DNA of 64,000 nt from an uncultured Candidatus Saccharibacteria bacterium. GTDB taxonomy: Bacteria > Patescibacteriota > Minisyncoccia > Phycocordibacterales > PALSA-1337. Under the pieces are notes generated by a model. The model did no database searches and was not told the origin of the DNA. It worked only from the letters and a program-made list of their open reading frames with translations. Positions 5,635 to 22,007 of the stretch are shown piece after piece (the stretch's first letter is position 1; every line of letters starts with the position of its first letter). The stretch covers positions 4,431 to 68,430 of the forward strand of contig CAZVQB010000001.1 of NCBI GenBank assembly GCA_964629235.1, given 5' to 3'. A program made the translations under genes and the position numbers.

Positions 5635-5639
5635 TGCGG

Positions 5640-6118: not shown

Positions 6119-7201
6119 TTGATGTATTATATTTCAGTTATGTCAGACAAAAATTCTACAAATCCAAAATCCTCTTCAGTTTTATATAGGAAATACAGAC
6201 CATACAATTGGTCTGACGTTGTTGGGCAAGATCATATAATATCTGTTTTAGAGAATTCTATTAAACTTGATAAGATCGCTCACGCATATCTTTTTTCTGG
6301 TAGTAGAGGCACGGGTAAGACCTCTATTGCTCGTATATTCGCTCGTGCACTTGGTGTAAGTGACAATGATGTATATGAGATGGATGCAGCTTCAAATCGC
6401 GGTATAGACGATATACGAGAGATTCGTGATGGTGTAAGTGTTCTACCTTTTGAATCAAAATATAAAGTCTATATCATAGATGAAGTACACATGCTTACAA
6501 AAGAAGCATTCAATGCTTTGTTAAAGACTTTGGAAGAACCTCCAGCACATGCGATTTTTATCCTAGCTACAACTGAGACTGATAAAATTCCTGAGACGGT
6601 TCTTTCTCGATGTCAGATTTTTAGTTTTAAAAAGCCGAATAGGGAAGTATTAAAGACTTTGGTAAATAAAATAGCTAAGAAAGAAGGATTCACTATAGAT
6701 ACTGGTGTTGCTGATCTTATCGGTTTACTTGGAGATGGATCTTTTAGAGATACTTTGGGAATATTACAAAAAGTTATAAGTTCATCTTCTGATAAAAAGA
6801 TTTCAATGAAGGAAGTTGAAGAGATAACTGGAGCTCCAAGAGGGGAGTTGGTAAATAATTTTATATCTTCGCTAGCTTATGGTGATAAGGATCAAGCTTT
6901 TTCAATAATATTAAAAGTAAAAGAAGCAAATATTTCAATAAAGACATTTATTTCATTGATTCTAGAAAAAATTAGAATAATTTTAATTCTAAAGAATGTA
7001 AATTCTATATCATCAGTTGAATCGTTGAAACAGAGTGTATCAGAAGATGATTGGGTTATTTTGGAAAAGATTTCAAAAGATGAAAAAAGTAAAGTAGGAT
7101 TAAGTATGCTAAGAGAATTGTTGAAGGCTTATGATTTGACTTCCTATTCTTATATTGAGACTTTGCCTCTAGAAATAGCTATTGTTGACATAGTTTTATA
7201 G
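6119..7201 (+). CDS. dnaX: DNA polymerase III subunit gamma/tau (short form)
   Basis: AAA+ clamp-loader motifs (GSRGTGKTSIARIFARAL, SRC motif LSRCQIF); only 360 aa. Confidence 0.85.
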   Translation: MMYYISVMSDKNSTNPKSSSVLYRKYRPYNWSDVVGQDHIISVLENSIKLDKIAHAYLFSGSRGTGKTSIARIFARALGVSDNDVYEMDAASNRGIDDIREIRDGVSVLPFESKYKVYIIDEVHMLTKEAFNALLKTLEEPPAHAIFILATTETDKIPETVLSRCQIFSFKKPNREVLKTLVNKIAKKEGFTIDTGVADLIGLLGDGSFRDTLGILQKVISSSSDKKISMKEVEEITGAPRGELVNNFISSLAYGDKDQAFSIILKVKEANISIKTFISLILEKIRIILILKNVNSISSVESLKQSVSEDDWVILEKISKDEKSKVGLSMLRELLKAYDLTSYSYIETLPLEIAIVDIVL

Positions 7202-7204
7202 CGT

Positions 7205-7428
7205 GATACTATTCTGTGGACGGGTTCCTTAAATATTATGAAGCATATTATCATTGCTCGGCGTATCGGAGGAAAGCCGGAGAGAGTCGTGAGGTTGATC
7301 GAGATTTCGACACCCCCACCGAACAACGCAGTCGTGATCAATGACCACTGGAAACACAGGGTCATTCGACAAGGCACATAAGAGTCGCCAAACAGCCCTG
7401 TACGTACTATACGTACAGGGTCTTTTTT
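7205..7428 (+). ncRNA. structured ncRNA candidate downstream of dnaX (contains GAGGAAAGCCGGAG; class unresolved)
   Basis: About 220 nt GC-elevated ORF-less segment. It ends in an intrinsic terminator (ccctgtacgta-ctat-acgtacaggg + T-run, 7396-7428). Its motif tcGGAGGAAAGcCGGag resembles the RNase P P4 strand GAGGAAAGUCCGG and SRP domain IV purine-rich motifs, but the element is too short for a typical RNase P RNA. Confidence 0.3.
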
Positions 7429-7439
7429 CCACAATTTTA

Positions 7440-7695
7440 TTTGAAATCAGATTTGGGTTGTGATAATCTAGATTTTGGCTAGTTAATGACTCAAACCTAT
7501 GAATAAAGGTACCGTATTGCATCACCGAATCGGTCAAACCGATTCAATGCGCAAAAACAGGCGGAAGAAGGGATATACTCTTCCTGTCGGAATCAGACGT
7601 CATATGAGGAAGAGTTCTGAGGAAGGAGGTGAACACAAGTAGTGTTTGAAGAGTTCATCGTTCAATCCCCGAGTACATGTACTCGGGGATTTTGT
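7440..7695 (+). ncRNA. second possible small RNA / leader with its own terminator
   Basis: Purine-rich repeats (ggaagaaggg, gaggaagag, gaggaaggagg) are followed by a hairpin atccccgagtacatgtactcggggat + TTTGT at 7665-7695. No convincing ORF is present. Confidence 0.2.
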
Positions 7696-7736: not shown

Positions 7737-7810
7737 TGCGGGATCGTATAATGGTAGTACAGCGGCCTTTGAAGCCGTGAATCTTGGTTCGATTCCAAGT
7801 CCCGCAGCCA
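7737..7810 (+). tRNA. tRNA-Gln (anticodon TTG)
   Basis: Manual fold: acceptor TGCGGGA/TCCCGCA (7/7 pairs), anticodon stem-loop GCGGC-CTTTGAA-GCCGT with anticodon TTG, T-arm CTTGG-TTCGATT-CCAAG, encoded CCA. Total length 74 nt. Confidence 0.85.
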
Positions 7811-7916
7811 ACATGAGCTAGCTCAAAGATAGCTAGTTTACAAACAAAAACACCTCTTAAATTTGAAAGGCGTTTTTGTTGTTTTATATTGCAACAAAAT
7901 ATGCCATAATCTTTAT

Positions 7917-8090
7917 ATGAAAGATGGTGTCAAAAAGCTGGGAGAAAATATCAAAAAATTTAGGATCAAAAAAGATGTTAGCTAAACAGAACTTGCTCGT
8001 GTGTTGAGCGTTGTTTGATCTTTTGTGAGTAATATCGAGATTATATTGATGATGCAATTAGAGCTAGTTGCTAAGCTATGCAGACTTAAA
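7917..8090 (+). pseudogene. decayed XRE-family HTH regulator gene (in-frame TAA and TGA)
   Basis: Translation gives MKDGVKKLGENIKKFRIKKDVS*TELARVLSVV*SFVSNIEI..LELVAKLCRLK. This matches the XRE/Cro-C1 HTH pattern (..LSQ.ELA..LGVSRS.IS.IE.G....LE.L.KL...L) but is interrupted by two stop codons. Confidence 0.55.
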
Positions 8091-8146
8091 TTTTTATTTC
8101 ATACTCGTGCTAGTAAAAATACTATTTTCTGATAATATCATGGGTA

Positions 8147-8662
8147 ATGAATAAACCATTATTTACTAATGAATATATAGGAAACGCTGGTGTTAAATAT
8201 GTTTTCAAATACTACGATTCAGATAATTTTGACCATTTACCAAAAGACAGAATAAAGCAATCCTACGCTGTAGCTTTTTATAAAGACAAATTTCTAGTTG
8301 TTAATAATATAAAAAATCCTAAACAGCAATACGGGCTAATTGGAGGTAGTGTTGAAGAGGGGGAAGATCCAAATGAAACTTTAATCCGAGAAATTATGGA
8401 AGAATCAAGGATGAAAGTCTTAGAATATAAGTTAATTGGTTATCAAAAGGTGATTGATACTCGAGGAATTCAAAAAGATTTTTATCAACTAAGATATTTT
8501 GCAAGAGTTGAACCTGATGGTTTTTTTATTTCTGATCCTGCAGGTTGTGTTACAGAGATTATTGAGTGCACAAAAGATGACTATAAAAAATATTTTGATT
8601 GGGGTGAGATAGGTGATTATATAATTAAAAGAGCATATGAAATTAAACAACCATCAGCATAA
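8147..8662 (+). CDS. NUDIX hydrolase
   Basis: Nudix box GGSVEEGEDPNETLIREIMEESRM matches GX5EX7REUXEEXGU. Confidence 0.65.
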   Translation: MNKPLFTNEYIGNAGVKYVFKYYDSDNFDHLPKDRIKQSYAVAFYKDKFLVVNNIKNPKQQYGLIGGSVEEGEDPNETLIREIMEESRMKVLEYKLIGYQKVIDTRGIQKDFYQLRYFARVEPDGFFISDPAGCVTEIIECTKDDYKKYFDWGEIGDYIIKRAYEIKQPSA

Positions 8663-9683
8663 TTATTTGATTTCTACTTTTGATGGTTTGGGCGATGGAG
8701 TTATTTACTATCCAATTATTAGGTCTGTTGCAGAAGGCAATCCACGAAATCTATTTTATTGTGCGACAAACTTATTTTTTTCTGATAAAGACATATTAGA
8801 AAAACTAGACTTACCAAAAAATATCAAATTCGTTACTGAAGAATTTAGAAAGTTTCCAGAAGAAAACTATAATTATATATTAAACTTTTTATCTGAAAAT
8901 AATATAAAAAAAATAATAAATTTGAGATTTATCGGTAGAGATTTTGAAAAAGGCTACTTCAAATTCAAAGATCATGCAGAATCTAATAATCTAGATTTAA
9001 ATTTTTATGATAGTGAAAATATTTCTTTTTTTGAGAGCAACCATAACGCTCGGTCTGTGGTTTTAAAGATATTTGAAAATACCCTCGGTGGTGAAATTAA
9101 ATACAATGAATTTATACTGAAAACTATTTTCCCAGTATCTGATGATTCCGATGCTATTTTTATAAATATGCACTCAAGAGGCGATTTTAAATTATGGAAT
9201 ATCAATAAATGGTCTGAAGTTATCTCATCAATGGTTTTTTATGGTAAGAAGGTTTATGTTTATGACGGTTATGATGAAAAGGAAAAGGAATATACACGAA
9301 AAGTATTTGATAACTTAAGCCAAATCGTGAAAGGTAAAATTAATCTTTTGGTTGATAGTAATTTATTAGATTTGATATCTACTCTACAAAAGGCCAAATT
9401 GTTAATCTCAGTTGATTCTGGATTAATACATTTGGCTGATGCTGTCGGAGTCGAGTCTATAGGTATTTATCTAACCACCTCTCCTAGAATGTGGGGAGGT
9501 GTAACTGAAAAATTTCATTTTGTACAAAGTCTCCACATGAGAAATTGCAAAAAATTCTATAAACAATTTGGTATGTGTATGAATGGTAAGAAAAAATGCG
9601 AAGAGATTGAGGGTGAGAGTGACGATATAGACATTCATGAAATTTTTAATATAGTTAATAATATCTATGAAAAAGAAAATTAA
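8637..9683 (+). CDS. glycosyltransferase family 9 (heptosyltransferase-like)
   Basis: C-terminal motif LISVDSGLIHLADAVGVESIGIY matches the GT9 DSGpmHlAaAlg signature. Confidence 0.6.
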   Translation: MKLNNHQHNYLISTFDGLGDGVIYYPIIRSVAEGNPRNLFYCATNLFFSDKDILEKLDLPKNIKFVTEEFRKFPEENYNYILNFLSENNIKKIINLRFIGRDFEKGYFKFKDHAESNNLDLNFYDSENISFFESNHNARSVVLKIFENTLGGEIKYNEFILKTIFPVSDDSDAIFINMHSRGDFKLWNINKWSEVISSMVFYGKKVYVYDGYDEKEKEYTRKVFDNLSQIVKGKINLLVDSNLLDLISTLQKAKLLISVDSGLIHLADAVGVESIGIYLTTSPRMWGGVTEKFHFVQSLHMRNCKKFYKQFGMCMNGKKKCEEIEGESDDIDIHEIFNIVNNIYEKEN

Positions 9684-11505
9684 GCTAGCAGTTTTTGTTG
9701 ATGGAGATTTTATACCATCATATGATGGTGCTTCTAACCGATTTCACTATTTATCTAGGTATTTATCAAAACAAGGTATTGACCTGACTATATTTCATGG
9801 GTATAGAGGTTGGTCTAATATCTCTTTAATAAAAAAAGAGCCCTTTAAGACATACGTTTTTCCGATAGATAATTACTACAATAATCTTGAATTAATAGCA
9901 TCAATTTTGATTAAGGAAGGAGTAAACATTATTCAATTTGATAATCTTGAACCAATTCTCTTACAGGGAATTAAATTATCAAAACTTACTGGCGCTAAAT
10001 TGGTTAGCGAGATGCATTATGTGGTAAGAAGTTTGGCGAAAAGATTAGGCGCAGATAATGAGAGGCTATCTGAGATAGAGAAAATAGAATATGAAGTTGG
10101 TAAAAATATTGATCATTTAATATGTCTGAGTGAGCAAGATAAACCGTCTTTGATTAAGTATTTAAATATAGATGCTGATAAAGTATCGGTTATTCCTAGC
10201 GGGGTAGATATTAATGAGATTAAATACTTTGTTTCAGATTTTAAATCCAGAAATATTGTTTTTCTGGGGAATCTATATTTCAAACCCAATGAGGATGCGG
10301 TTAGGATTATAAAGGAAAAAGTATATCCAAAATTAAAAGATCAAGGTTTTAAATTTACTGTTGGAGGTGATTGTCCTCCGGATATTCAAAAAGAATTAAC
10401 TGATAAAAATTTTACTTTCATAGGCACAGTTCCTAATCTTAATGATTTGTTTAAGAATGCAACTTTTGCTCTGGCCCCCATTTTTGAAGGAACTGGTATG
10501 CGTATTAAATTATTGAATTATTTAGCTGCTGGTATCCCTGTTATAACTACGTCGATTGCTACAAATGGCTTTAACCAAAAAGAAGCTTTTATTGTTGAAG
10601 ACGATGTCTCAAAATACGCAGACATTATTCTAGATTTAGTTAATGATAAGAGGAAATTAAAAAATGTATCTAAAAGAGGACATAAGATTATTAAGAAATT
10701 TTATGATTGGAAAATTGTTGCTAAAAGAACAATTAAGACTTATAAAAATATTTTAAAAGAAAGAAATGTAGAAAAATTTGGTAACCATAGTATATTGAAA
10801 ACTAAAGAACCGGTATGGCTCCAAGAAGCTGTTGCCAAGCAAAGATTTAAACAGATTAAGAATCCTAGTCTACCAAAAGATTTTTCATATTGTGTTATAG
10901 AAAATAATTATATTAAAGATTATACTCTTAAAAAAATAGTTGCTTTGGAAGGTATGCCTGGTGCAGGTAAGACTACTTTTATAAATAGTTATGTAAAAAA
11001 TAATGGTAATATAAAATTCTTACCACAACTAGAGATTAAAAATAGAAAGATTTTAGAGAGAGATAATTTGGAAACAACTAAAATGTTTTTGTCTGCTGAA
11101 AAAGAAAAAAGTGATCTTATTAATCAAATTGCAAAAGAAAATAAGGAAATTGTAATTGATCGAACATTTTTAACTACCTTGGCATATTGTTATGCTAGGT
11201 CGAAAAAACTTAAAAATGATGAATACTCAAAGTTGATAGAGTTTTATAATAAGATTAAAGAAGATATCACTTTCCCTACAAAATTAATTTTCTTAGATGT
11301 TGAGAATAAAAGGAGTCTAGAAAGGAGAAGGCGATTTGCTAATAACCCCGATTACTCTAATTGGTTTGATGAAGAATTTTTAAATCATATGCGCGAATTT
11401 TATAAAAAAGAAATATCCAAATTTATTAACATAAAAGTTGATTATGTCGATACAACAAGTATGTCTATAGAAGAAGTTAGCAATACATTAAAAGAAATTA
11501 TATGA
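9667..11505 (+). CDS. bifunctional protein: N-terminal GT4/GT1 glycosyltransferase fused to C-terminal P-loop (TMPK/dNK-like) kinase domain
   Basis: Residues ~1-360 carry the GT4 signature (GTGMRIKLLNYLAAGIPVITT). Residues ~420-612 carry a Walker A motif (VALEGMPGAGKTTF) and a DR(Y)-like motif (VIDRTFLTTLAYCY) typical of thymidylate/deoxynucleoside kinase folds. Confidence 0.6.
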   Translation: MKKKIKLAVFVDGDFIPSYDGASNRFHYLSRYLSKQGIDLTIFHGYRGWSNISLIKKEPFKTYVFPIDNYYNNLELIASILIKEGVNIIQFDNLEPILLQGIKLSKLTGAKLVSEMHYVVRSLAKRLGADNERLSEIEKIEYEVGKNIDHLICLSEQDKPSLIKYLNIDADKVSVIPSGVDINEIKYFVSDFKSRNIVFLGNLYFKPNEDAVRIIKEKVYPKLKDQGFKFTVGGDCPPDIQKELTDKNFTFIGTVPNLNDLFKNATFALAPIFEGTGMRIKLLNYLAAGIPVITTSIATNGFNQKEAFIVEDDVSKYADIILDLVNDKRKLKNVSKRGHKIIKKFYDWKIVAKRTIKTYKNILKERNVEKFGNHSILKTKEPVWLQEAVAKQRFKQIKNPSLPKDFSYCVIENNYIKDYTLKKIVALEGMPGAGKTTFINSYVKNNGNIKFLPQLEIKNRKILERDNLETTKMFLSAEKEKSDLINQIAKENKEIVIDRTFLTTLAYCYARSKKLKNDEYSKLIEFYNKIKEDITFPTKLIFLDVENKRSLERRRRFANNPDYSNWFDEEFLNHMREFYKKEISKFINIKVDYVDTTSMSIEEVSNTLKEII

Positions 11506-12401
11506 AAGATATAAGTGTTATTATTCCAACATACCAACATAAAGATAGAGACATTCATCTGGGACTACTTCTCGACACCCTCCTAGTTGAAAGTAATCTA
11601 AAATATATTAATGAAATCTTAATCATAGACAATGGGTGTGCTTTAGATGGAAGTTCATTTGAAACTCAAAGTGCAGAAATAAAAATAATTAAAGAGCCTT
11701 TATTAGGTTTAAATAATGCTAGAAATTGTGGAATTTCTAATGCTAGTGGATTTATATTTGCTTTTCTAGATGACGATGTAACTGTTTCTAAGGATTGGTC
11801 TAAAGGAATATATAATGGATATAACAATAGAGGTGTTTTATGTGTTGGTGGCTCCGTCTCGTTGGGTGAGTATAATCTGAAATTGCCAAATTGGTTATCT
11901 GATTATTTCAAAAGGTTTTTGTTTCCTCCGAATTTTCCAGAAAATTCTGGAATACTAAAATTGCCATATTATTTGATTGGTGCAAATATGTCTTTCAAAA
12001 AGGAGGTCTTTGATAAATTTGGTCTATTTAATTCAGAACTGGATCGTAAAGGCAATAATCTATTATCCAATGGAGATACTGAATTTATTATTAGATTACC
12101 CACACAGTCTATATGGTATTCAGATGAAGCTCGAGTATCTACAATTGTAAAAATAGATAGATTTACCAGATTTTTTATGATTAAAAGATTATTTTGGCAA
12201 GGAATATCAGACTATATTATGGTTAAAGAAAATGGTACTTCTAATTTCTATGATAAGAATGAGATATTTTTCAGTAATAAATTTTTAAAGATATTTTTTC
12301 ATAAATTAGTCACACTCAAACTTTTTGAAGTTTTTTGTATTGTAGTTAGAATTGTGGGATTTCGTATGGGAATTTTTTATATTAAAGAAAAGAGGGGGTA
12401 G
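11502..12401 (+). CDS. glycosyltransferase family 2
   Basis: GT2 motifs ISVIIPTYQH, DNGC and FLDDDV. Confidence 0.65.
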   Translation: MKDISVIIPTYQHKDRDIHLGLLLDTLLVESNLKYINEILIIDNGCALDGSSFETQSAEIKIIKEPLLGLNNARNCGISNASGFIFAFLDDDVTVSKDWSKGIYNGYNNRGVLCVGGSVSLGEYNLKLPNWLSDYFKRFLFPPNFPENSGILKLPYYLIGANMSFKKEVFDKFGLFNSELDRKGNNLLSNGDTEFIIRLPTQSIWYSDEARVSTIVKIDRFTRFFMIKRLFWQGISDYIMVKENGTSNFYDKNEIFFSNKFLKIFFHKLVTLKLFEVFCIVVRIVGFRMGIFYIKEKRG

Positions 12402-12419
12402 AATCTTTCTACCCCCTCT
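12391..12419. terminator. perfect 12-bp palindrome hairpin spanning both convergent stop codons (bidirectional terminator candidate)
   Basis: AGAGGGGGTAGA-atctt-TCTACCCCCTCT. The left arm encodes the ...KRG* end of GT2 and the right arm (reverse complement) encodes the ...KRG* end of the TMPK-like gene. Confidence 0.6.
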
Positions 12420-12972
12420 TGATGATCTTGAGTATTTCGTTGACGGCGTTTTGAGGACCATCGACGGTATCGTCAATATGGTGTTGTATTCGTTTTTTAA
12501 ATTCCACAAGGCACCGACGCTCCATCTCTTGTCGAAGATTGAATTTCTCCATGTCCTTGACTGGTCCACCACGGCTGTAAAGTCGTTGTTGTCGCTTTTC
12601 TTCGTCACAAACTATCAGGAAAACATAGTCCGGCATGCGACAAAGGTGCTCGAAAGTTTCCTTGATATCGAGCCCATACACTGTGTGATAGCATATAGTC
12701 GACCAGATGTACTTATCACAGACAACGCTTTGGGTTTCCAGGGTCCTGCTAATCTCCCAGGAGGCATGTGCCACCGAAGAGAGATAAAACAAAAATCTGG
12801 ATCCTAGCGAAAGCCTGAGATCAGCCTCTTCCCGCATCTTACTGAATGGTGCGGGGGGAGTGGCGTAGTACTTGGCTGGTAGTTGTTGAGCCAACATCTT
12901 GGAAACTTCCGTCTTGCCGCTACCAGAAATACCTTCGATCACAATGAACAAGTTTGGATTTTTCTGATCCAT
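12409..12972 (-). CDS. thymidylate-kinase-like P-loop nucleotide kinase (GC-rich, likely horizontally acquired)
   Basis: Walker A motif FIVIEGISGSGKTEV and a DRY-equivalent CDKYIW; 187 aa. Local GC is roughly 45-48% against ~30% in neighbouring genes. Confidence 0.55.
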   Translation of the reverse strand: MDQKNPNLFIVIEGISGSGKTEVSKMLAQQLPAKYYATPPAPFSKMREEADLRLSLGSRFLFYLSSVAHASWEISRTLETQSVVCDKYIWSTICYHTVYGLDIKETFEHLCRMPDYVFLIVCDEEKRQQRLYSRGGPVKDMEKFNLRQEMERRCLVEFKKRIQHHIDDTVDGPQNAVNEILKIIKRG

Positions 12973-13039
12973 TTCATACTCCTTTCTGGTTAGGTGTCTT
13001 CCATAACTATATAACTAATATAGTTATGTGTCAATTTTA

Positions 13040-13555
13040 TTAAAAATAAGATTCTAACTTTTTTGTTAAATCGTATAGTTGATCTTTCCCAGCTAGTCCT
13101 TCGCAGTGTTCAAGAAATGTTCTAATGCTAGTAATATATTTGTCGTTATTAACGAACTTAGGAAACAGATGCTGTTCATTTCTTGCGTATATTTTTATAA
13201 AATTTCTCATATGGGAGGTAAAATCAGCCATCTTTATTAATTTACCGCCATTAGATATGGTTTTGATCCCTTCGTAATATTTAAGTTTTTGTTGTTCGTT
13301 ATAGTTTTTAGGGTGAGATACTTCTTGAACCATATCTGCTACTTCTCTTGAAAAATTTTCGGTTATTTCTTCATATGTTGCTGAAGTGTCTTCGAGCGTA
13401 TCGTGCAGTAATCCAGCTATTAAGACAGTTTCATCTTGGACTTCAAATTCATCTCTTAAAATTTGAAATACATCTAGAAAGTGATTCTTTTTGCTGATTT
13501 CTTCGAATTTTTTTGTTGCATATTCTTTTGCTAATTCTATTTTTGTGTGGTCCAT
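13040..13555 (-). CDS. HD-domain phosphohydrolase of RelA/SpoT type (small alarmone hydrolase-like)
   Basis: Motif IAGLLHDTLEDTSATYEEI matches the ppGpp-hydrolase HD signature (AALLHDvvEDT); 171 aa with no synthetase domain. Confidence 0.55.
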   Translation of the reverse strand: MDHTKIELAKEYATKKFEEISKKNHFLDVFQILRDEFEVQDETVLIAGLLHDTLEDTSATYEEITENFSREVADMVQEVSHPKNYNEQQKLKYYEGIKTISNGGKLIKMADFTSHMRNFIKIYARNEQHLFPKFVNNDKYITSIRTFLEHCEGLAGKDQLYDLTKKLESYF

Positions 13556-13605
13556 ATAATTTATATTGATTGTTTTTTTAAGATATTTTAACTATTATAT
13601 GAGTT

Positions 13606-14385
13606 ATGTCAGATATAGTAAATATATATAGGAAAAATACCACAAATACTGGAGATAAGTTTTCTACTCCAACAAAATATTTTGATTTTTTGAAAGATGT
13701 TGAAACTTTAGATTTCACTGAATTACCCAGAGAAGAGTTGGCTAAATATATAAAAGATAAGATTGTCATATTTGGCGGGGGTGGCTTTCTAGAACAAGAA
13801 TATTTTAAAGAATATATGAAGACTTTATTAGGAGCTGATACGAAAATGCTAGTTGGTTGGGGGGTAGGACATAACATTCATGGAGTTTCAGATGTACTGT
13901 TTAATTCTTATGATTACAAAAAAGAATTTGATCTGCTGGGTGTTAGAGACAGTGTTTCAGAAATGGATTGGGTTCCTTGTTCTAGTTGTATGCATGATGC
14001 ATTTGATAAAAAATATGAAATAAAAAATAAAATTGCAATTTATGAACATAAAAACTTTCCACTAAGAAGAATGAATCAGGATTTCCCAAAAATGAAAAAT
14101 GGGGATTCTTTCGAGGAGATTATAGAGTTTTTAGGTAGTGCAGAACTTGTCGTTACTAATAGTTATCATGGTGCTTATTGGGCAACCTTACTAGGGCGCA
14201 GGGTCATCGTCATGCAACCATTTTCTTCTAAATTTTTTAGTTTTAAACACCCATTAGTTGTTGCTAATAATTTTGATGTAAAAAATATTGAAAATATGCC
14301 GATGTATCCGAACGCTTTGGAAGAGGCAAGGGAAGCAAATCTATTATTTTCCGAGAAGGTTTCCCAATTGTTAAAACTAAGTTAG
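13606..14385 (+). CDS. polysaccharide pyruvyl transferase-like protein
   Basis: GGGGFL near the N-terminus and VTNSYHGAYWATLLGRRVIV near the C-terminus resemble PS_pyruv_trans (CsaB/WcaK) motifs. The assignment is weak. Confidence 0.4.
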   Translation: MSDIVNIYRKNTTNTGDKFSTPTKYFDFLKDVETLDFTELPREELAKYIKDKIVIFGGGGFLEQEYFKEYMKTLLGADTKMLVGWGVGHNIHGVSDVLFNSYDYKKEFDLLGVRDSVSEMDWVPCSSCMHDAFDKKYEIKNKIAIYEHKNFPLRRMNQDFPKMKNGDSFEEIIEFLGSAELVVTNSYHGAYWATLLGRRVIVMQPFSSKFFSFKHPLVVANNFDVKNIENMPMYPNALEEAREANLLFSEKVSQLLKLS

Positions 14386-14394
14386 TAAAACGGA

Positions 14395-15129
14395 ATGAAA
14401 ATAATTTCTCTAAATACTTGGGGTGGTCGAGTAAAGGAACCTTTTATTGACTTTGTAAAGAAGTACAACAATACAGATATATTTTGTTTTCAGGAAATAT
14501 ATGACAATGCCGAAGAAATAATGAAGAGGCATTATCCGGAAGATTCTTTTAATATATTTAGTGAACTTAAAGAATTACTACCTAATCACAATGGTTTCTT
14601 TCGACCAGTTCTACAAGGAGTATACGGTTTGGCTATTTTTATTAAAAAGGAGATTCTTCTTTTGGAGGAGGGTGAAATTTTCATCCATCGTTCTGATAGT
14701 AAATTAGTAACAGATGGACATCATTCAAGAAATCTTCAATGGGTTAAATTTAGTTTTAAAAATGAACTATTTACTGTTATGAACGTACACGGATTATGGA
14801 ATGGAAAAGGTAAAACAGATACTCCAGAAAGAATTGCACAATCAAACTTGATAAAGGAGTTTGTTAATAAAGCAGAAGGTAAGAAAATATTGGTAGGAGA
14901 TTTTAACCTAAATCCTGATACTGAAAGTGTTAGGATTTTGGCAAAAGATATGAAAAATCTCATAGAAGAATATTCAATAGTTTCAACTCGTACCAGTCTG
15001 TACAAAAGACCTGGTAAATTTGCAGATTATATTTTTGTTTCTCCTGATGTCGATGTGAATAATTTTACAGTATTACCAGACGAGGTTTCTGACCACGCCG
15101 CTCTTTCTTTAGAGCTAAAATTGGTTTAA
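14395..15129 (+). CDS. endonuclease/exonuclease/phosphatase (EEP) family protein
   Basis: ISLNTWGG N-terminus, VGDFNLNPD and C-terminal SDHAALSLEL match EEP catalytic motifs. Confidence 0.65.
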   Translation: MKIISLNTWGGRVKEPFIDFVKKYNNTDIFCFQEIYDNAEEIMKRHYPEDSFNIFSELKELLPNHNGFFRPVLQGVYGLAIFIKKEILLLEEGEIFIHRSDSKLVTDGHHSRNLQWVKFSFKNELFTVMNVHGLWNGKGKTDTPERIAQSNLIKEFVNKAEGKKILVGDFNLNPDTESVRILAKDMKNLIEEYSIVSTRTSLYKRPGKFADYIFVSPDVDVNNFTVLPDEVSDHAALSLELKLV

Positions 15130-15170
15130 ACTTCGTACTATACAGTCAGCAAATAAGTTATACTCTAAAT

Positions 15171-15608
15171 ATGAAAAATTTACCTTCAGAAATTCTTGAA
15201 TATCTTAAGACCCAACGAATTGGAGTTTTTGCAATTGAGATGTTGGACGGCTCACCTCATGCTGCAACTGTACACTTTGCACATGCAGAAAATCCATTTC
15301 AATTTTACATCGAGACTGGCATCAATTGTAGAAAAAGTGAACCACTTTTAAAAAATAGTTCTGCGCGGGCGACACTTGTTATCGGTACTGATGAGAATAA
15401 TATGAAGACTCTACAAATGGACGGAATTGCACGTATTGTTAAAGATTCAGAAAACGATTTCTTTATAGACACTTATCTTAAAAAATTTCCAAGCAAAGAA
15501 GGTAAAGTAAAAGATCCTGAAGCAGTTTACATTATTTTTACTCCTACGTGGTATCGATTCACTGACTGGAAAACTTCAGAAGGGAAGAAGATTTGGATTT
15601 CGAACTAG
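15171..15608 (+). CDS. pyridoxamine 5-prime-phosphate oxidase-like FMN-binding split-barrel protein
   Basis: General-stress-protein-26/PNPOx-like pattern (RIGVFAIEMLDGSPHAATVHFA...YIETG). Confidence 0.4.
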   Translation: MKNLPSEILEYLKTQRIGVFAIEMLDGSPHAATVHFAHAENPFQFYIETGINCRKSEPLLKNSSARATLVIGTDENNMKTLQMDGIARIVKDSENDFFIDTYLKKFPSKEGKVKDPEAVYIIFTPTWYRFTDWKTSEGKKIWISN

Positions 15609-15675
15609 GTTCTAGCTTATTAAACATTTTTGCAATATAATAAAAATAGAAACCATATTCTAAAGGATTCACCAA

Positions 15676-15837
15676 ATGAAAAAAGCTCTTACTGCTATCG
15701 GGATGTTGTATGTTCTTGTTGGTATGTTCATTGCAACCGATCTCAACCCTTTGCTTTACTGGAGCTGGTATCGTAACGGTGTGAACGAGTTGCTCAATAC
15801 CATGTTTAGTATTTATCCAGCATTACCACTTCTGTAG
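15676..15837 (+). CDS. small (53 aa) hydrophobic membrane peptide
   Basis: MKKALTAIGMLYVLVGMFIATDLNPLLYWSWYRNG... with an AGGA-like RBS upstream and a terminator hairpin (aaaccacc...ggtggttttt) ~90 nt downstream. It is below the ORF-track size cutoff. Confidence 0.3.
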   Translation: MKKALTAIGMLYVLVGMFIATDLNPLLYWSWYRNGVNELLNTMFSIYPALPLL

Positions 15838-15970
15838 CTCATATCGATATTCATTGTCGCGAATATCGTGACATTCTCAAAAGAAGTAAAGCGATTAATA
15901 CTTACTTAAAATGCGATAGAATTAAACCACCCCGCATAAACTGAGGTGGTTTTTCTGTTATAATTACCGC

Positions 15971-16429
15971 ATGCAAAAAATTCATTTTTCAATACAAATA
16001 AACGCTAAAAAGGAAAAGGTGTGGGATATTATGTTAAATGACACAACATACAGAGAATGGACGAAACCTTTTCATGAAGGTTCGTATTACAAGGGAGACT
16101 GGAGTGAAGGATCAAAGATGCTTTTCTTAGGCCCAGATGAGACAGGTAAAAAAGAGGGAGGTATGGTTAGTAGAATAAAAGAGAATCGTAAATATGAATT
16201 TATTTCTGTTGAACATTTAGGTTTCGTGATGGATGGCATTGAAGATACAACAAGTGAAGATGTTAAAAAATGGACCCCTGCTTTCGAGAATTATACATTT
16301 ATAGATAAGGGCGGTGGTACAGAATTAAATATTGATATGGAAGTAGCAAATGATGAATTTAAAACTATGTTTGAAGAAACATGGCCAAAAGCGCTTTTGG
16401 AATTAAAAAGGGTTGTAGAAAGATCATAA
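15971..16429 (+). CDS. SRPBCC/AHSA1-domain protein (activator of Hsp90 ATPase homolog-like)
   Basis: N-terminal IHFSIQINAKKEKVWDIMLNDTTYREWT is typical of AHSA1/START-like SRPBCC proteins. Confidence 0.55.
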   Translation: MQKIHFSIQINAKKEKVWDIMLNDTTYREWTKPFHEGSYYKGDWSEGSKMLFLGPDETGKKEGGMVSRIKENRKYEFISVEHLGFVMDGIEDTTSEDVKKWTPAFENYTFIDKGGGTELNIDMEVANDEFKTMFEETWPKALLELKRVVERS

Positions 16430-16539
16430 TGTAGTTTCACAATAAAAAATATAAACACACTTTGACTAGTGTGTTTTAATATGGTATTTTATGTATGAAT
16501 TTTTAGTTCTTCAGACATAAACCCATAGAAAAACTTACA

Positions 16540-17256
16540 ATGACGACAAGTGAACTCAGTTGGAACAAGGTTTCGTTTTTGGCCAAACTGCAGTTATATT
16601 TCAAATCAACGAATGACTTTAAAATGAAGGTATGGTCAGCAAATATTCTTGAACGTGCCGAAGCCTATTCCGCACTGTCTAGTTGCTATTATAGTATAGT
16701 TGGAACTGGAATAGCACATTTCAAAAACATCTTCAGAGATGATTGGAAATTTTTCTTATTTCCAGTGCTGACTGTGATTTGGTTTTTAACATGGTTTCCA
16801 TTAGTGCTTGGATGTTATATAAATATGCTTCGCTATTCGAACCAGGTAGTGAAGCTTATTGGTTACGACACCATGACAGTTGATCAGCTTGATATTCGAC
16901 AGAGTATACTACGTTGTACCTTTCAATATAAAGAGGCGAAATCTTGTATATATTTAGCACTTAAGAAAAATCCTGAAAAACCACATACAAGAGGATTGCT
17001 AAATGTTGGACTTGCAGAAATCCTTATAAAAGATGGTGATAGGATGAGCGCGAAATTTGAGTTGGCGCGTGCTGTAACTGAAGCCAAAGTTTCAGAAGAA
17101 GATAATCCCCAACAAGCTGTGCGTATTTACAGACATTGCGCAAGATTATACTTCAGACTTAATGATAACTTCATAATAGATGGGGAACTTTGTCTTCATA
17201 AAGCAAGAACTATTGCTTTAAAAATTGAAGCCATGGACCAAGTGATCAAAATGTAA
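16540..17256 (+). CDS. hypothetical membrane protein
   Basis: 238 aa with central hydrophobic helices (FFLFPVLTVIWFLTWFPLVLGCYI). It is followed by a strong terminator at 17261-17294. Confidence 0.3.
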   Translation: MTTSELSWNKVSFLAKLQLYFKSTNDFKMKVWSANILERAEAYSALSSCYYSIVGTGIAHFKNIFRDDWKFFLFPVLTVIWFLTWFPLVLGCYINMLRYSNQVVKLIGYDTMTVDQLDIRQSILRCTFQYKEAKSCIYLALKKNPEKPHTRGLLNVGLAEILIKDGDRMSAKFELARAVTEAKVSEEDNPQQAVRIYRHCARLYFRLNDNFIIDGELCLHKARTIALKIEAMDQVIKM

Positions 17257-17260
17257 ATCT

Positions 17261-17294
17261 CGCCTCGTGTTTTATACACGGGGCGGTTTTTTTA
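17261..17294 (+). terminator. intrinsic terminator
   Basis: cgcctcgtg-ttttata-cacggggcg + T7. Confidence 0.7.
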
Positions 17295-17330
17295 TTTTGT
17301 TTATATTTTAAAGCATTATAGAATAGCAAT

Positions 17331-17813
17331 ATGAATACAATACCCAAAAATACAATTTGTTTATGGTTTGATAAAGATGCAGAAGAAGCAGCAAATTTTT
17401 ATGCTTCTGTTTTTCCTGATAGTAAAGTAAATGCAATTTTTCGTGCGCCAGATGATTTCCCAGGTGGAAAGAAAGGTGATGTACTCACGGTAGATTTTAC
17501 CGTTTGCGGAATTCCTTGTATTGGTTTAAATGGTGGACCGATTTTTCCACACAGCGAAGCCTTTTCTTTTCAAATAGCTACTGACAATCAAGAGGAGACT
17601 GATAGATATTGGAATGCAATAGTATCAAATGGAGGAAAAGAGAGTGAATGCGGTTGGTGCAAGGATAAATACGGTATATCTTGGCAGATAACACCGAGAA
17701 CTCTAATTGAAGCGTTGGCAATAGGTGGTAGTGAAGCTGAACGGGCCTTTAAAGCAATGATGACTATGAGTAAAATCGATGTGGCGGTTATAGATAAAGC
17801 TAGGAGAGGGTAG
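17331..17813 (+). CDS. PhnB-like VOC-family protein (3-demethylubiquinone-9 3-methyltransferase domain)
   Basis: N-terminus ICLWFDKDAEEAANFYASVFPDS matches the PF06983 signature. Confidence 0.6.
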   Translation: MNTIPKNTICLWFDKDAEEAANFYASVFPDSKVNAIFRAPDDFPGGKKGDVLTVDFTVCGIPCIGLNGGPIFPHSEAFSFQIATDNQEETDRYWNAIVSNGGKESECGWCKDKYGISWQITPRTLIEALAIGGSEAERAFKAMMTMSKIDVAVIDKARRG

Positions 17814-17868
17814 ATTTGTAACAAGATCGATACTTGAATAATGTCACCACTTGATATAACCTAGCGTA

Positions 17869-18615
17869 ATGATAAGCAGTCTTTCGTCTATACAAAACAA
17901 TATCATTTCAAAGTTGAAGAATTCTAAGTCCCTTAGATATAGCGAGCTTCAACCAAGAGATATTCCAAATGATCTTTTTAACTATCATTTGCAACATTTA
18001 GTTAAAAAAGAGCTAATAATAAAAAATCCAAAAGGTTATTCGCTTTCAGAAAGAGGAATCAGATATGTAGCAGACCCATATCCGAATAACAATGTAATCT
18101 CGAGCCTCTTTAAAGTAAATGTTATAACTATTGTTTCTAGAGTCAGAAATGGAAAAATTGAAATATTAAACCAAATTAGAAAATCAAATCCATCATTCGG
18201 TAAGGTTGGAGTAATGGGAGGTGTTGTTTTAAAGGGAGAGCTTATAGAGGACGCAGCAAAAAGAAAGTTTAAACAAGAAACAGGGTTGGATGCGAAATTT
18301 AAACATATTGGAACAGAACGTAGAATCATGTATAAAAATGGAGAATTATTTTCAGATTTACTTTTCCCTATAATGTATTCAAGAAGATATACTGGCGAGT
18401 TGTTGGTCGATTCTGATTTTGGTCATAATATGTGGGTTTCAATAAATCAAGCAATTGAAAACGAATCTGGTGAATTCGATTCAATACGAAGTATAAATAT
18501 CGTTCTAAAATCAATTAAAAATAATAAAATTAAAAATTTGCCAATCTTTTTTAAAGAAGAAATTCAAAGTGACAATATAGAGAATAATAAAAATGATACA
18601 TTGTCTACCGAATAG
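17869..18615 (+). CDS. winged-helix (N-terminal) + NUDIX (C-terminal) fusion protein
   Basis: The N-terminal ~70 aa have a wHTH pattern (LFNYHLQHLVKKELIIKNPKGYSLSERG). A Nudix-like box GGVVLKGELIEDAAKRKFKQETGL follows. Confidence 0.45.
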   Translation: MISSLSSIQNNIISKLKNSKSLRYSELQPRDIPNDLFNYHLQHLVKKELIIKNPKGYSLSERGIRYVADPYPNNNVISSLFKVNVITIVSRVRNGKIEILNQIRKSNPSFGKVGVMGGVVLKGELIEDAAKRKFKQETGLDAKFKHIGTERRIMYKNGELFSDLLFPIMYSRRYTGELLVDSDFGHNMWVSINQAIENESGEFDSIRSINIVLKSIKNNKIKNLPIFFKEEIQSDNIENNKNDTLSTE

Positions 18616-18685
18616 ACACTCTCTTTTTTATTTTTTATGAAAAGTAAATAATACTATCGGACTCATTAAGTCTTTAATAAATATT

Positions 18686-19516
18686 ATGAGAAATATAAAA
18701 AATGAAATAGCCACTAAGGGTCATATAACTTTAGAGTATCCGTCTAACCTCAGAAAAGCTGTAGAAGAAACGAATACGCTTTGGGAGAAATTTTGTGAAT
18801 TGCCTGAAGATGTAAAAAGTAGTCTTGTGTATAGCAACAATTCAGACGGGGTGGGGTATGAACTTAAAGATGGAATAGGGAAAAATGCTGATCGAAAGGA
18901 GAATTTTGATATAACTATAGCTGGAGAAAAATGGTTAGTTGAAAATACAAGTAAAATCAAAGAACCAGTTGTTCTAGATTTCTTAAAGAGTGCAGTATCG
19001 CTTGTTGATATTATGAAATCTACTGTATTTGACTTTGCACTCTATCTTGAACAAGTATACGACATACAAGGATTTCATAATGAAGTAAGAGACAGTAAAG
19101 ACTCGTTCTTTGTAAGGTTCATTCACTATTTCGGTAATAGAAAAGATGGAGAAGAAACAGCTTCTGCACATGTTGATCAAAGTGGTTTTACTTTTCATTT
19201 GTATGAAAGCCAGCCAGGATTGCAGGCATTAAGTTTTAGAGGCGATTGGGAAGATATGCCAGTGTCGTCTGGTGAGACCGTTATAATACCCTCGATGCAG
19301 TTACAACTAAGAACAAAAGGGAAGTTAAAGGCATTGTGTCATAGAGTTGTAGCAACTCAGACTACTGCAAAAACCGGCCGGTATTCAGCAGTTTGTTTTG
19401 TACAATTAAAAAATACTTCAAAATACGATAAAGATAAGCACGGCCGTTTACAAGAAAAGACCCCAGGTTTTAATTATCAAATGGCGTACGAAGAATTCCA
19501 AGAGCTCTTCAAATAA
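18686..19516 (+). CDS. 2OG-Fe(II) oxygenase family protein
   Basis: HVDQSGFTFHLYESQPGLQAL matches the HxD...GLQV iron-binding core. A downstream LKALCHRVV provides the distal His and Arg. Confidence 0.55.
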   Translation: MRNIKNEIATKGHITLEYPSNLRKAVEETNTLWEKFCELPEDVKSSLVYSNNSDGVGYELKDGIGKNADRKENFDITIAGEKWLVENTSKIKEPVVLDFLKSAVSLVDIMKSTVFDFALYLEQVYDIQGFHNEVRDSKDSFFVRFIHYFGNRKDGEETASAHVDQSGFTFHLYESQPGLQALSFRGDWEDMPVSSGETVIIPSMQLQLRTKGKLKALCHRVVATQTTAKTGRYSAVCFVQLKNTSKYDKDKHGRLQEKTPGFNYQMAYEEFQELFK

Positions 19517-19550
19517 AAAACACCCGCACGACTGTCGTGCGGGTGAATTG

Positions 19551-20139
19551 CTATTCTCCAGGGTGATTCCAATCAAAGAAAACCCTACCTTCACGTTTGG
19601 TAATGTCTTCATGATCACCACCACTAGGGTCTCTCAAAGGACCAATGTATTTTCCAGGATAAATAGTAAGAATCGATGCAAAAATGTTATGACTATCATT
19701 AAAAATACCGTAAACAATAGAAACCAGTGAGGTTCTCGGTGCTTTGATATCAATAAGATGTTTTGCAACTCTCAATCCGACACTTCGATTGTTAGGATTA
19801 AAACTTTCGAGATGACCAAGGTTGTAGTGTTCAATCGAATCAGTTGACTCCCAACCGATTGTTTCTTCGAAATCGAGAGTAACTACACCCATTTTGCAAT
19901 CCTTGTTCTCATTGAGTGTACGGACGATACTCCTATACATTTCATCGCCAAAGTCGAAATCACCGTCGTATGCAAATTCCTCAAACGTATTCCATTTAGA
20001 GAAATTACCAGCGAGTTCATGATGAACCCCACGAAAACAGGTTCCATTGAGTCTGAGACGCGTTTTCCTTGTATAAAGGATACCAAATTTATAATGGTCG
20101 ATAGTTTTTCTGTAGAAATTTTCAAGATTTTCCTTTCAT
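19551..20139 (-). pseudogene. GC-shifted gene of unknown function requiring a +1 frameshift near its start (frameshifted/pseudo or slippery start)
   Basis: One reading frame is open from 20135 to 19551 (~195 codons). The only ATG (20139) lies in another frame: atg aaa g|gaa aat.... The ORF track splits it into 19883..20125 and 19551..19940. A terminator hairpin is present at 19521-19545. Confidence 0.4.
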
Positions 20140-20184
20140 TGCAAAATCTTTTTTTATACTACATATATAATTTATTTCTGTCAA

Positions 20185-20208
20185 CAAAAAAGGCCTTTCG
20201 GCCTTTTT
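20185..20208 (-). terminator. intrinsic terminator after typA
   Basis: aaaaaggcc-tttc-ggccttttt (bidirectional). Confidence 0.7.
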
Positions 20209-20210
20209 CA

Positions 20211-22007
20211 TTATTCTTTTCTTCTCGCTTTCGCTCTATCTGTTTCAGTTAAGAATTTCTTTCTCAGTCTTACTGATAGGGGAGTGATTTCTAGATATTC
20301 ATCTTCTCGCATTGTTTCAAGACCTCTTTCGACATCGATCTTCCAAGCCGGAGTAAGCATGATATGTTCATCATTACCTGATGATCTCATGTTTGTCAGA
20401 GCTTTACCCTTACATGGATTTACATCCATATCTTCACCCTTAGATACATCTCCAACAACCATTCCTTCGTATACGTCTGTTGTTGGTTCAATAAATATTC
20501 TTCCTCTTTCTTGTAGATTCCATAGAGCAAAAGCTAAAGCCTTACCTGTCATCATAGATGTCATAGATCCTGTAGTATGCTTCTCAATTTCTCCTGCATA
20601 TTCCTTGAATCCAATAAATCTACTAGCAAGAATTCCTTCACCCTTTGTGTCTATAACGAAAGCACTTCTGTATCCTAGTAAACCTCGTGTAGGAATTTCA
20701 AAAAGCATACGTGTTTGACCATCTTTTGATTTCATATCAACCATAGTCGCTTTTCTTTGCCCTAATTTTTCTATAATAGCTCCTGTGAATTCATCAGGGA
20801 TATCGATAGTAAGCTCTTCGAAAGGCTCACTCTTAACTCCGTCGATTTCCTTTACGATTACTTGTGGTTGAGATACTTGTAGTTCATATCCTTCTCGTCT
20901 CATATTTTCTAGCAGAACAGCGATATGAAGTTCACCTCGTCCAAATACTCTATAGTATTCATTTGATGAGAAATCCACCTTTAGACCTACGTTTATCTCA
21001 AGTTCCTTTTCCAGTCTTTCTCGGATTTGTCTACCTGTTACGAATTTACCCTCACGTCCTGCAAAAGGTGATGAGTTTACCAAGAAGTTTAGAGAGATTG
21101 TAGGCTCATCAATTTTAATAGCAGGAAGAGCTGGAGTTTCAGCTTTATCTGTTATTGTTTCTCCAATATAGATTTGTGGGAATCCAGCGATAGTTACGAT
21201 GTCACCAGCACTAGCTTCTTGTATTTCAACTCTCTTTTTTCCTTCGAAAGTAAATAATTTTGTTACTCTACCACTATTTACACTTCCATCAATTTTCTTT
21301 TCAAATACAGTTTGTCCAGTTTTTATTGTTCCATCGTAAACACGAGCAATAGCAAGACGGCCAAGGAAGTTGTCATATCCTAGGTTAAATACTTGCGCTG
21401 TAAGTGGGTCTGCAGCACTTCGATCTTTGTTTGCTGGTGGAACATGTTCAAGAATCATATCAAGAAGAGGAGTCAGATCTTTTCTTGGATCATCAAGCTT
21501 CTTCATAGCAACTCCTTCACGACCTATAGCGTATATAGTAGGGAAGTTCAATTGAGCATCATTTGCACCAAGTTCCATGAATAGTTCAAGCACCATCTCA
21601 TGACAATTGTCAGGATTTGCAGCTGGCTTGTCTATTTTATTTATAATTACGATTGGCTTTATACCAAGTTCTAGAGATTTCTTTAATACGAATCGAGTTT
21701 GTGGCATTGGGCCCTCTTGTGCATCAACTACAAGTAAAACTGTATCAATAGATCGTAGAACTCGCTCCACTTCTGATCCGAAGTCGGCGTGTCCTGGAGT
21801 GTCCACGATATTGATCTTTGTACCCTTGTATTCTATTGATGTATTTTTTGCATAAATAGTAATACCTCGCTCTTGTTCTAGAGCGTTTGAGTCCATTGTT
21901 CCATCTTCACCATGACCGCATTGTGTCATGATTGCGTCAGTAAGAGTTGTCTTACCGTGGTCCACGTGCGCAATGATTGCAATATTTCTTATATCCATAA
22001 AGGCCAA
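20211..22007 (-). CDS. typA: translational GTPase TypA/BipA
   Basis: 598 aa with an N-terminal G domain (AIIAHVDHGKTTL, DTPGHADF, NKID) and EF-G-like domains II-V. Confidence 0.9.
   Translation of the reverse strand: MAFMDIRNIAIIAHVDHGKTTLTDAIMTQCGHGEDGTMDSNALEQERGITIYAKNTSIEYKGTKINIVDTPGHADFGSEVERVLRSIDTVLLVVDAQEGPMPQTRFVLKKSLELGIKPIVIINKIDKPAANPDNCHEMVLELFMELGANDAQLNFPTIYAIGREGVAMKKLDDPRKDLTPLLDMILEHVPPANKDRSAADPLTAQVFNLGYDNFLGRLAIARVYDGTIKTGQTVFEKKIDGSVNSGRVTKLFTFEGKKRVEIQEASAGDIVTIAGFPQIYIGETITDKAETPALPAIKIDEPTISLNFLVNSSPFAGREGKFVTGRQIRERLEKELEINVGLKVDFSSNEYYRVFGRGELHIAVLLENMRREGYELQVSQPQVIVKEIDGVKSEPFEELTIDIPDEFTGAIIEKLGQRKATMVDMKSKDGQTRMLFEIPTRGLLGYRSAFVIDTKGEGILASRFIGFKEYAGEIEKHTTGSMTSMMTGKALAFALWNLQERGRIFIEPTTDVYEGMVVGDVSKGEDMDVNPCKGKALTNMRSSGNDEHIMLTPAWKIDVERGLETMREDEYLEITPLSVRLRKKFLTETDRAKARRKE

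Follow-up and report, generated by a model that had tools for sequence, protein, structure and literature searches.

Flexible genomic islands are a recognised feature of streamlined free-living bacteria, as exemplified by the tRNA-flanked islands of Prochlorococcus, and islands concerned with glycosylation, termed 'glycotype' islands, have reportedly been described by Rodriguez-Valera and colleagues. Elements mobilised by large serine recombinases (LSRs), which carry restriction-modification (R-M) or defence genes, provide a second comparison, and a third is given by the genomic islands of tRNA genes (tDNAs) that are catalogued in Islander, where tyrosine integrases are described (PMC4383910). 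The Patescibacteria have tiny, streamlined genomes in which gene gain and loss are little documented. Here we describe a concrete and well-bounded flexible slot in such a genome, located between a tRNA-Gln gene downstream of dnaX and the typA gene (positions 7737 to 20210) in a 64,000-nucleotide stretch of contig CAZVQB010000001.1, which we refer to as the window. The original prediction, made from the letters of this stretch, took the interval to be an old integrative element that has lost its integrase. We consider the interval likely to be a mosaic flexible genomic island, residing in a hypervariable slot at a tRNA-Gln integration hotspot, and not one dead element. Genome features of this kind are familiar; the present one is assembled from several pieces and overturns no current view.

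The island in the window resembles the tDNA islands of Islander in that it starts at the 3' end of a tRNA gene, has strain-variable cargo and is absent from the same site in close relatives; in relatives this tRNA end also shows regenerated tRNA genes, displaced 3' fragments and adjacent recombinase genes. In contrast to those islands it contains neither an integrase nor a displaced fragment, and consequently cannot be delimited as a discrete element, and the recombinases found at this site in relatives are LSRs. The similarity to flexible genomic islands lies in the location of the slot between core genes, its variable content in close relatives, its glycosyltransferase-rich cargo and its host-like composition, whereas the host is a member of the candidate phyla radiation (CPR), the cargo includes a block that is conserved across genera and occurs at other loci, and a site-specific junction is directly evidenced at the tRNA. 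LSR elements with R-M or defence genes are represented in relatives by elements of the L165, L098 and L100 type, and an XRE pseudogene in the window resembles their HTH_3 genes. However, the window has no recombinase or R-M gene, and its tie to these elements consists of the pseudogene and the shared target site.

Close relatives were chosen as contigs encoding close homologs of DnaX (identity to the window of 94% in L081, 91% in L089, 80% in L084 and 79% in L085, L086 and L087). Domains were assigned by a Pfam scan of all open reading frames (ORFs) of at least 95 aa in the interval, and about 20 further ORFs scanned elsewhere in the window are all housekeeping genes. The window has a GC content of 34%, its closest TypA and DnaX matches are metagenome-assembled Patescibacteria of the Paceibacteria/Taylorbacteria type, and its gene order is dprA, serS (SerRS), ftsQ, a D,D-peptidase gene, dus, a short dnaX, tRNA-Gln, the interval, typA, yqeY, rmuC, rplU (L21), recR and dnaB. 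The flanks are syntenic in the relatives with DnaX identities of 79-94%, six or seven genes being collinear on the left and six on the right, and the segment between these flanks differs in each of them, ranging from 1.8 to about 12 kb. At least five slot configurations occur among genomes with a DnaX identity of 79% or more. L085, L086 and L087 have only isochorismatase, DUF2177 and SOUL genes (1.8 kb) between tRNA-Gln and typA, with a right flank that is collinear as far as dnaB, and the slot of L084 encodes His_Phos, HIT, S66, DUF2177 and SOUL proteins. L081 has 9.6 kb that contain SET, HTH_3 plus SocA, DUF1653, DUF1761 and unassigned genes, followed by orthologs of the winged helix-turn-helix (wHTH)-NUDIX, 2-oxoglutarate (2OG) oxygenase and unassigned genes that precede typA in the window. 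L089 can be aligned up to position 7808, at the tRNA end, and then continues with part of the L081 cargo. Since relatives with collinear flanks carry other genes, the interval is accessory and not core; the comparison of relatives that the original prediction had proposed did not reveal the shared gene content expected of an ancestral core region. None of the 15 interval genes is located within 10 kb of typA in 80 GTDB genomes, although this typA-anchored comparison is mostly uninformative because the surroundings of typA are rearranged beyond the close clade.

The resumption of conserved core had been placed only at 20211. Compared with the nearest relative, L081, nucleotide homology ends at 7479 and synteny restarts as early as 17851, positions 17851-20210 aligning with L081 13416-16217 at 76.8% identity (blastn), near that of the left flanking core (78.7%). 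The three genes in this segment are an older resident layer common to L081, and because they are shared, the window-specific part of the interval is 7811-17850. The comparisons show that the tRNA-proximal part turns over fastest and that the typA-proximal trio is older.

Contigs from sister strains show recombination at the 3' end of tRNA-Gln, where the junction is exact. Between L090 and the window, identity amounts to 99.96% over window positions 7794-15410, and upstream of the join L090 contains a NYN-domain gene and a gene for a 200-aa protein, which match nothing in the window. The join reads GGTTCTAACGTCGTCTAAGACCCGCAGCCA; it copies part of the tRNA T-arm and acceptor in degenerate form, with the last 10 nt exact. 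This left arm recurs with 97-99.8% identity in three further samples (L095, L096 and L097), and past the core the one left arm continues into three different right arms (L090/L095, L096 and L097). The contigs L090 and L095-L097 originate from ERZ27283013, ERZ27283008, ERZ27283032 and ERZ17987222. The 10-mer core is present once in the window; the 1.57 Mb of fetched loci contain it at one other place only, within a coding region. The tRNA of the window ends in CCCGCAGCCAACATGAG and, since it keeps its encoded CCA together with a native-type flank (CAACATGAG), we take the site in the window to be unoccupied and of the native type. Contigs of the L090 type most likely come from sister strains in which an inserted element separates the tRNA from the old island. 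About 167 Paceibacteria proteins form the family to which the 200-aa protein belongs, of which members are encoded at the end of a module of serine recombinase, HTH_3 and type ISP R-M genes beside tRNA-Asn in L098, and others inside a module of about 12 kb that is bounded by serine recombinases and carries HTH_17 and D5-type primase genes (L100-L105).

Attachment (att) repeats were sought with the tRNA-Gln 3' 25-mer and 18-mer (up to three mismatches) and with the 10-mer core, exact and degenerate and on both strands, and no second copy was found in the 64 kb. There is likewise no att repeat in L081, L084, L085 or L089, a repeat finder run on the window returned AT-rich chance pairs only, and no direct tRNA-Asn repeat was found around the recombinase module of L098. 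No integrase is present among the Pfam-scanned interval ORFs, and tblastn located no serine-recombinase homolog in the 64 kb, in agreement with the original prediction that neither an integrase nor an att duplication is visible.

Metagenomes were also scanned with the 3' half of tRNA-Gln, which provided 80 tRNA-Gln loci from more distant Paceibacteria. The tRNA is preceded by dnaX in about 25 of the 80, and the sequence 3' of it differs almost everywhere. The cargo of the window is found at this position in none of the 80 loci, there being only weak (29-38% identity), paralog-level matches to the HD, EEP and PhnB-like proteins downstream in four. LSR genes with the domain set that was sought (Resolvase, Recombinase and Zn_ribbon_recom) lie at the same tRNA in L165/L148 and L108/L130, where they are convergent with tRNA-Gln and either 12-24 nt from it or overlapping; L165 additionally encodes a methyltransferase of the EcoRI type, together with a GmrSD/HNH enzyme and DUF4209. 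A displaced partial tRNA copy, (G)TCCAAGTCCCGCAGC, is found 168-805 nt downstream of the intact tRNA in nine loci (seven distinct, with two duplicate pairs). In these loci the intact tRNA has no encoded CCA, and the displaced copy keeps the CCA, followed by CAAC[A/T]T. Targeting of tRNA genes by serine rather than tyrosine recombinases seems to be common in these Paceibacteria.

The LSR gene of L165 (4159-5697) runs antisense over the 3' end of tRNA-Gln (5635-5708), and that of L098 (4127-5626) is similarly antisense over the 3' end of tRNA-Asn (4067-4139), an arrangement that suggests a putative attachment site within the 3' end of the LSR gene itself. A further variation is observed in L121, L125, L126, L134 and L141, whereby the first 170-270 nt 3' of tRNA-Gln contain a hairpin and an inverted partial copy of the T-arm and acceptor, followed by a direct partial copy. 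These small inserts could be a miniature element that targets tRNA ends, or a composite att scar.

Immediately downstream of tRNA-Gln(TTG), itself confirmed by ARAGORN and Rfam, the original prediction had noted an XRE-family gene interrupted by in-frame TAA and TGA codons, and translation bears this out (MKDGVKKLGENIKKFRIKKDVS*TELARVLSVV*SFVSNIE...). Its match to Pfam HTH_3 is weak (13.7 bits against a cut-off of 23, E=0.067, profile positions 1-30 of 55), and tblastn aligns it at 50% identity over 36 aa (E=9e-7) with an intact, annotated 57-aa HTH_3 gene of L098/L099, which adjoins a serine recombinase and a type ISP R-M enzyme. The orientation of the pseudogene and its position relative to the tRNA also match those of the HTH_3 gene in the recombinase element of L098. 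An identical pseudogene is present in the independent contigs L090 and L095, and because the same stops occur there they are not sequencing errors. It is probable that the pseudogene is the relic of a past regulator, serving as controller of a mobile element or an R-M module, and it looks like the only part of the interval that resembles a mobile-element relic.

Four layers make up the interval, namely the XRE pseudogene, a NUDIX gene with a seven-gene cassette, four small genes and the older trio (Table 1). All the domains named in the original prediction were reproduced with Pfam (two NUDIX, the glycosyltransferases GT9, GT4 and GT2, kinases, HD, PPOX-like (PNPOx), AHSA1, PhnB-like, 2OG and wHTH-NUDIX), and we add PS_pyruv_trans and EEP to this list. 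The cassette is also encountered at other loci. L091 and L092 possess all seven genes, in the same order and orientation, directly after rplE, and L093 and L094 retain the first six in yet another context; the proteins of these four share 49-79% aa identity with those of the window, and in none of them is the cassette beside a tRNA. The fusion of GT4 to a deoxynucleoside monophosphate (dNMP) kinase domain has about 60 full-length homologs (57-70% identity), and the few that bear organism names are from Paceibacterota/Parcubacteria. The NUDIX gene upstream of the cassette is identical in L090/L095. The four small genes have ordinary composition and are missing from the dnaX-typA interval of every relative compared. 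The genes of the cassette and of the small enzymes are typical of the lineage, and we infer that they were moved in blocks. In L091/L092 the segment 8255-15484 contains the cassette and accessory genes (HIT, two SET-domain and a histidine kinase), directly after rplE, and these appear to split an otherwise conserved ribosomal-protein operon.

Table 1. Coordinates of the features of the dnaX-typA region in the window.
Feature	Position	Strand	Basis or remark
dnaX	6140..7201	+	last left-flank gene; Pfam DNA_pol3_delta2/AAA
Spacer, two short terminator-bounded units, one 47-aa ORF each	7238..7642	+	ORFs 7238-7381, 7499-7642
tRNA-Gln(TTG), CCA encoded	7737..7810	+	ARAGORN; Rfam 63.7 bits; left edge of variable interval
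Recombination core AAGTCCCGCAGCCA, acceptor 3' strand plus CCA	7798..7810	+	swap point in sister-strain contigs
XRE/HTH_3 pseudogene, 213 nt	7917..8129	+	two in-frame stops (TAA, TGA), cut off after helix 3
NUDIX hydrolase, 171 aa	8147..8662	+	Pfam NUDIX E=8.6e-9; directly upstream of cassette
Seven-gene cassette, whole	8637..15129	both strands	Pfam; order kept elsewhere
GT9	8637-9683	+	Pfam
GT4::dNMP-kinase fusion	9667-11505	+	Pfam
GT2	11502-12401	+	Pfam
TMK-like kinase	12409-12972	-	Pfam
HD_4 hydrolase	13040-13555	-	Pfam
Pyruvyl-transferase-like (PS_pyruv_trans)	13606-14385	+	Pfam
EEP phosphoesterase	14395-15129	+	Pfam
PNPOx-like	15171-15608	+	Pfam
Hydrophobic ORF, 53 aa	15676-15837	+	ORF listing
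AHSA1/SRPBCC	15971-16429	+	Pfam
Membrane protein without family assignment	16540-17256	+	ORF
PhnB-like (3-dmu-9_3-mt)	17331-17813	+	Pfam
wHTH-NUDIX	17869-18615	+	83% protein identity to L081
2OG-Fe(II) oxygenase	18686-19516	+	80% protein identity to L081
Gene without family assignment, no canonical start	19551-20105	-	51% protein identity to L081
typA/bipA	20211..21998	-	first right-flank gene; Pfam GTP_EFTU, BipA_C

The interval had further been credited with mixed composition, several GC-rich singletons and a frameshifted gene, and here our results differ. The GC content of 14 of the 15 genes is within about 1.6 standard deviations of that of the window genes; the sole outlier is the TMK-like gene (GC 0.47, GC at third codon positions (GC3) 0.53, z=+3.8 for GC3). 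Its high GC content is a trait of the family and not a sign of recent import, because orthologs in L091 (12731-13297) and L093 (12773-13324) are equally enriched over their neighbours, the GC3 of the gene being 0.41-0.53 in these three divergent genomes compared with 0.23-0.29 for the adjacent genes. A recent foreign origin of this gene was therefore rejected, as was an antisense overlapping gene as the cause of its GC content, the + strand not being consistently open in L091 and L093. There is no sign of a frameshifted gene: the reading frame before typA aligns in one frame over 190 aa with its 198-aa ortholog in L081. It lacks the start region of this ortholog, and no ATG, GTG or TTG codon is present upstream of its internal Met. 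The gap at 15609-15970 holds just one small ORF, which encodes the hydrophobic peptide listed in Table 1.

We propose that new DNA would enter the slot beside the tRNA by site-specific integration, pushing older cargo towards typA, that mobility genes and att scars would be deleted afterwards, and that blocks such as the seven-gene cassette would be exchanged between hotspots or strains by recombination. According to this model the island in the window would now be immobile, with the XRE pseudogene as the sole relic of an earlier visitor element. The predicted occupied form would comprise dnaX, tRNA-Gln, a convergent serine recombinase, cargo, the NYN gene, the 200-aa gene, attR (GGTTCTAAC.TCGTCTAAG.CCCGCAGCC) and the XRE pseudogene, and a serine recombinase would be expected to make a 2-bp crossover inside CCCGCAGC.

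Several observations weigh against a mosaic island built by integration at this tRNA. The predicted fully occupied form is found on no contig from the species of the window, and because no contig displays it, the direction of the L090-type event is something that we infer rather than observe. No att scar is present at any internal layer boundary in the window, nor in L081, L084, L085 or L089, and the junction of tRNA-Gln with the XRE pseudogene is reproduced by no independent contig. The same picture would result from homologous replacement via the conserved flanks, which leaves it unproven that the present cargo came in by integration, and divergence right at the tRNA end is also to be expected from the conservation of a tRNA next to non-conserved intergenic DNA. 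LSRs normally leave a very short crossover, not repeats of 12-20 nt, and long direct repeats like those of the distant relatives are unusual for such enzymes, so more than one recombinase type may act at the site. Finally, the function of the cargo has been assigned from Pfam domains only.

The original prediction may be read as stating that the whole of 7737-20210 is one old tRNA-integrated element, either a genomic island or a prophage remnant, from which the integrase and att sites have been lost. Parts of it stand, since the interval is accessory, linked to a tRNA and equipped with a relic regulator. A single element would account for the location at the tRNA 3' end, for the dead XRE gene at the tRNA-proximal edge, placed as is the HTH_3 gene of L098, for the use of the same tRNA by recombinase elements in relatives and for the absence of the cargo from relatives. 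Nevertheless it is unlikely that these 12.5 kb were ever one element: the 64 kb contain no displaced tRNA fragment or distal repeat, and at least two ages are represented, since L081 shares 17851-20210, at an identity like that of the core, but not 7811-17850. Moreover the 7-kb core of the interval is a conserved cassette that lies after rplE or elsewhere in other genomes, and not by a tRNA, the composition is normal for 14 of the 15 genes, with an outlier that is GC-rich in all orthologs, and phage or viral similarity is lacking. A viral or phage origin was discarded separately, as neither the GT4-kinase nor the 200-aa protein has a match in IMG/VR and 7811-15800 has none in phage genomes (blastn). 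If, on the other hand, the genes had occupied this position in the common ancestor, and the relatives differed by lineage-specific loss, then host-like composition and codon usage, the absence of mobility genes and the Paceibacteria/Parcubacteria affiliation of the named cassette homologs would all be expected. This is quite improbable, however, as the relatives carry different genes and not subsets, the cassette is at unrelated loci in L091 and L093, and in a sister strain the left arm that is joined to the island at the tRNA core is a different one.

We also considered whether the interval is mainly an anti-phage cluster, in which the NUDIX, kinase and HD proteins would be effectors. The TMK-like protein matches the PADLOC candidate PDC-M51B over the full length (E=1.2e-28) as well as VakA (1e-19), a weak match is given by the fused kinase domain, and a NUDIX protein matches PDC-S07 (1e-6), weak PADLOC matches being obtained for both NUDIX proteins as well as one to NDT; furthermore, R-M and GmrSD genes are present in the elements that occupy this site in relatives. 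These are single components of generic fold, however, with no partners or complete system, 13 other proteins have no PADLOC match, and four of the cassette genes encode glycosyl or pyruvyl transferases, making it highly unlikely that the island serves chiefly in defence. That the junction at the tRNA is a chimera of assembly or binning we regard as barely credible. No independent contig contains the join of tRNA-Gln and XRE pseudogene, and the sister contigs break at this very point, but the shared core of 10-14 nt is far shorter than the assembler k-mers (k119-k141 contigs), the tRNA, CCA included, is intact, 7794-15410 and 17851-20624 are independently supported, and the proteins of the window are found on 3-11 public contigs, one of them of 80 kb.

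With respect to the contents of the mosaic island, the main cargo most likely serves to synthesise or decorate a glycoconjugate of the cell surface, because it includes GT9, GT4, GT2 and pyruvyl-transferase-like domains. Genes of this sort are what islands that vary between strains usually contain. To judge from their families, the two dNMP-kinase-like domains, the RelA/SpoT-type HD_4 protein, NUDIX and EEP may provide nucleotide-linked precursors or trim them. NCBIfam offers no equivalog-level names for the cargo proteins, all matches being below the cut-offs. A more far-reaching proposal, to which we assign little likelihood, is that the slot is fed by an LSR family that would target tRNA 3' ends in the CPR, with att at the 3' end of the recombinase gene, and that the cassette would be a transferable module for glycosylation of nucleotides or DNA, or for defence. 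If this were true, the PDC-M51B/VakA-like P-loop kinases would have nucleotides or DNA as substrates instead of a surface glycan, and the cassette would be no plain envelope cluster. The slot offers a defined target site (the tRNA-Gln 3' end), known occupants in relatives, namely serine-recombinase defence islets, and a conserved multi-gene cassette that is present at several hotspots, and the locus can serve as a marker when strains are typed or gene flow is studied in uncultivated CPR populations.

Outside the island, L081, L084 and L085 share a collinear left flank (dprA-serS-ftsQ-peptidase-dus-dnaX) with the window. The true start of dnaX is probably the ATG at 6140, which gives a protein of 353 aa as in its homologs. 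The spacer that follows, with a terminator at 7395-7421, aligns with L081/L088/L089 and belongs to the conserved left flank. Each of its 47-aa ORFs is followed by a terminator and has no Pfam assignment, and the protein sequences of both are conserved in L081, L088 and L089; the second is very basic (MNKGTVLHHRIGQTDSMRKNRRKKGYTLPVGIRRHMRK...). A structured RNA between dnaX and the tRNA was considered and rejected, since no Rfam family was detected there at gathering or E-value thresholds and the two small protein-like ORFs with terminators occupy the region instead. The tRNA-Gln is the sole tRNA of the 64-kb window and also follows dnaX in L081, L084-L087 and L089. On the right, typA is 92% identical in L085/L086, where yqeY-rmuC-rplU-recR-dnaB are collinear. 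A GC-rich ORF of 116 aa with no Pfam match lies between typA and yqeY (22151-22501, - strand), and a 99-aa gene occupies the same place in L085/L086.

Two further arrangements concern tRNA sites in relatives. L098 has a 99-aa GIY-YIG gene (3748-4047) between a partial 5' copy of tRNA-Asn (3688-3725) and the intact tRNA-Asn, which suggests the insertion of a homing endonuclease beside the tRNA. L088, a relative with a DnaX identity of 99%, has no tRNA-Gln past the spacer and carries at 2275-2883 an ORF without a Pfam match that contains an N-terminal HTH and a LAGLIDADG-like motif (LYWAEGSKE); this is possibly also a homing endonuclease.

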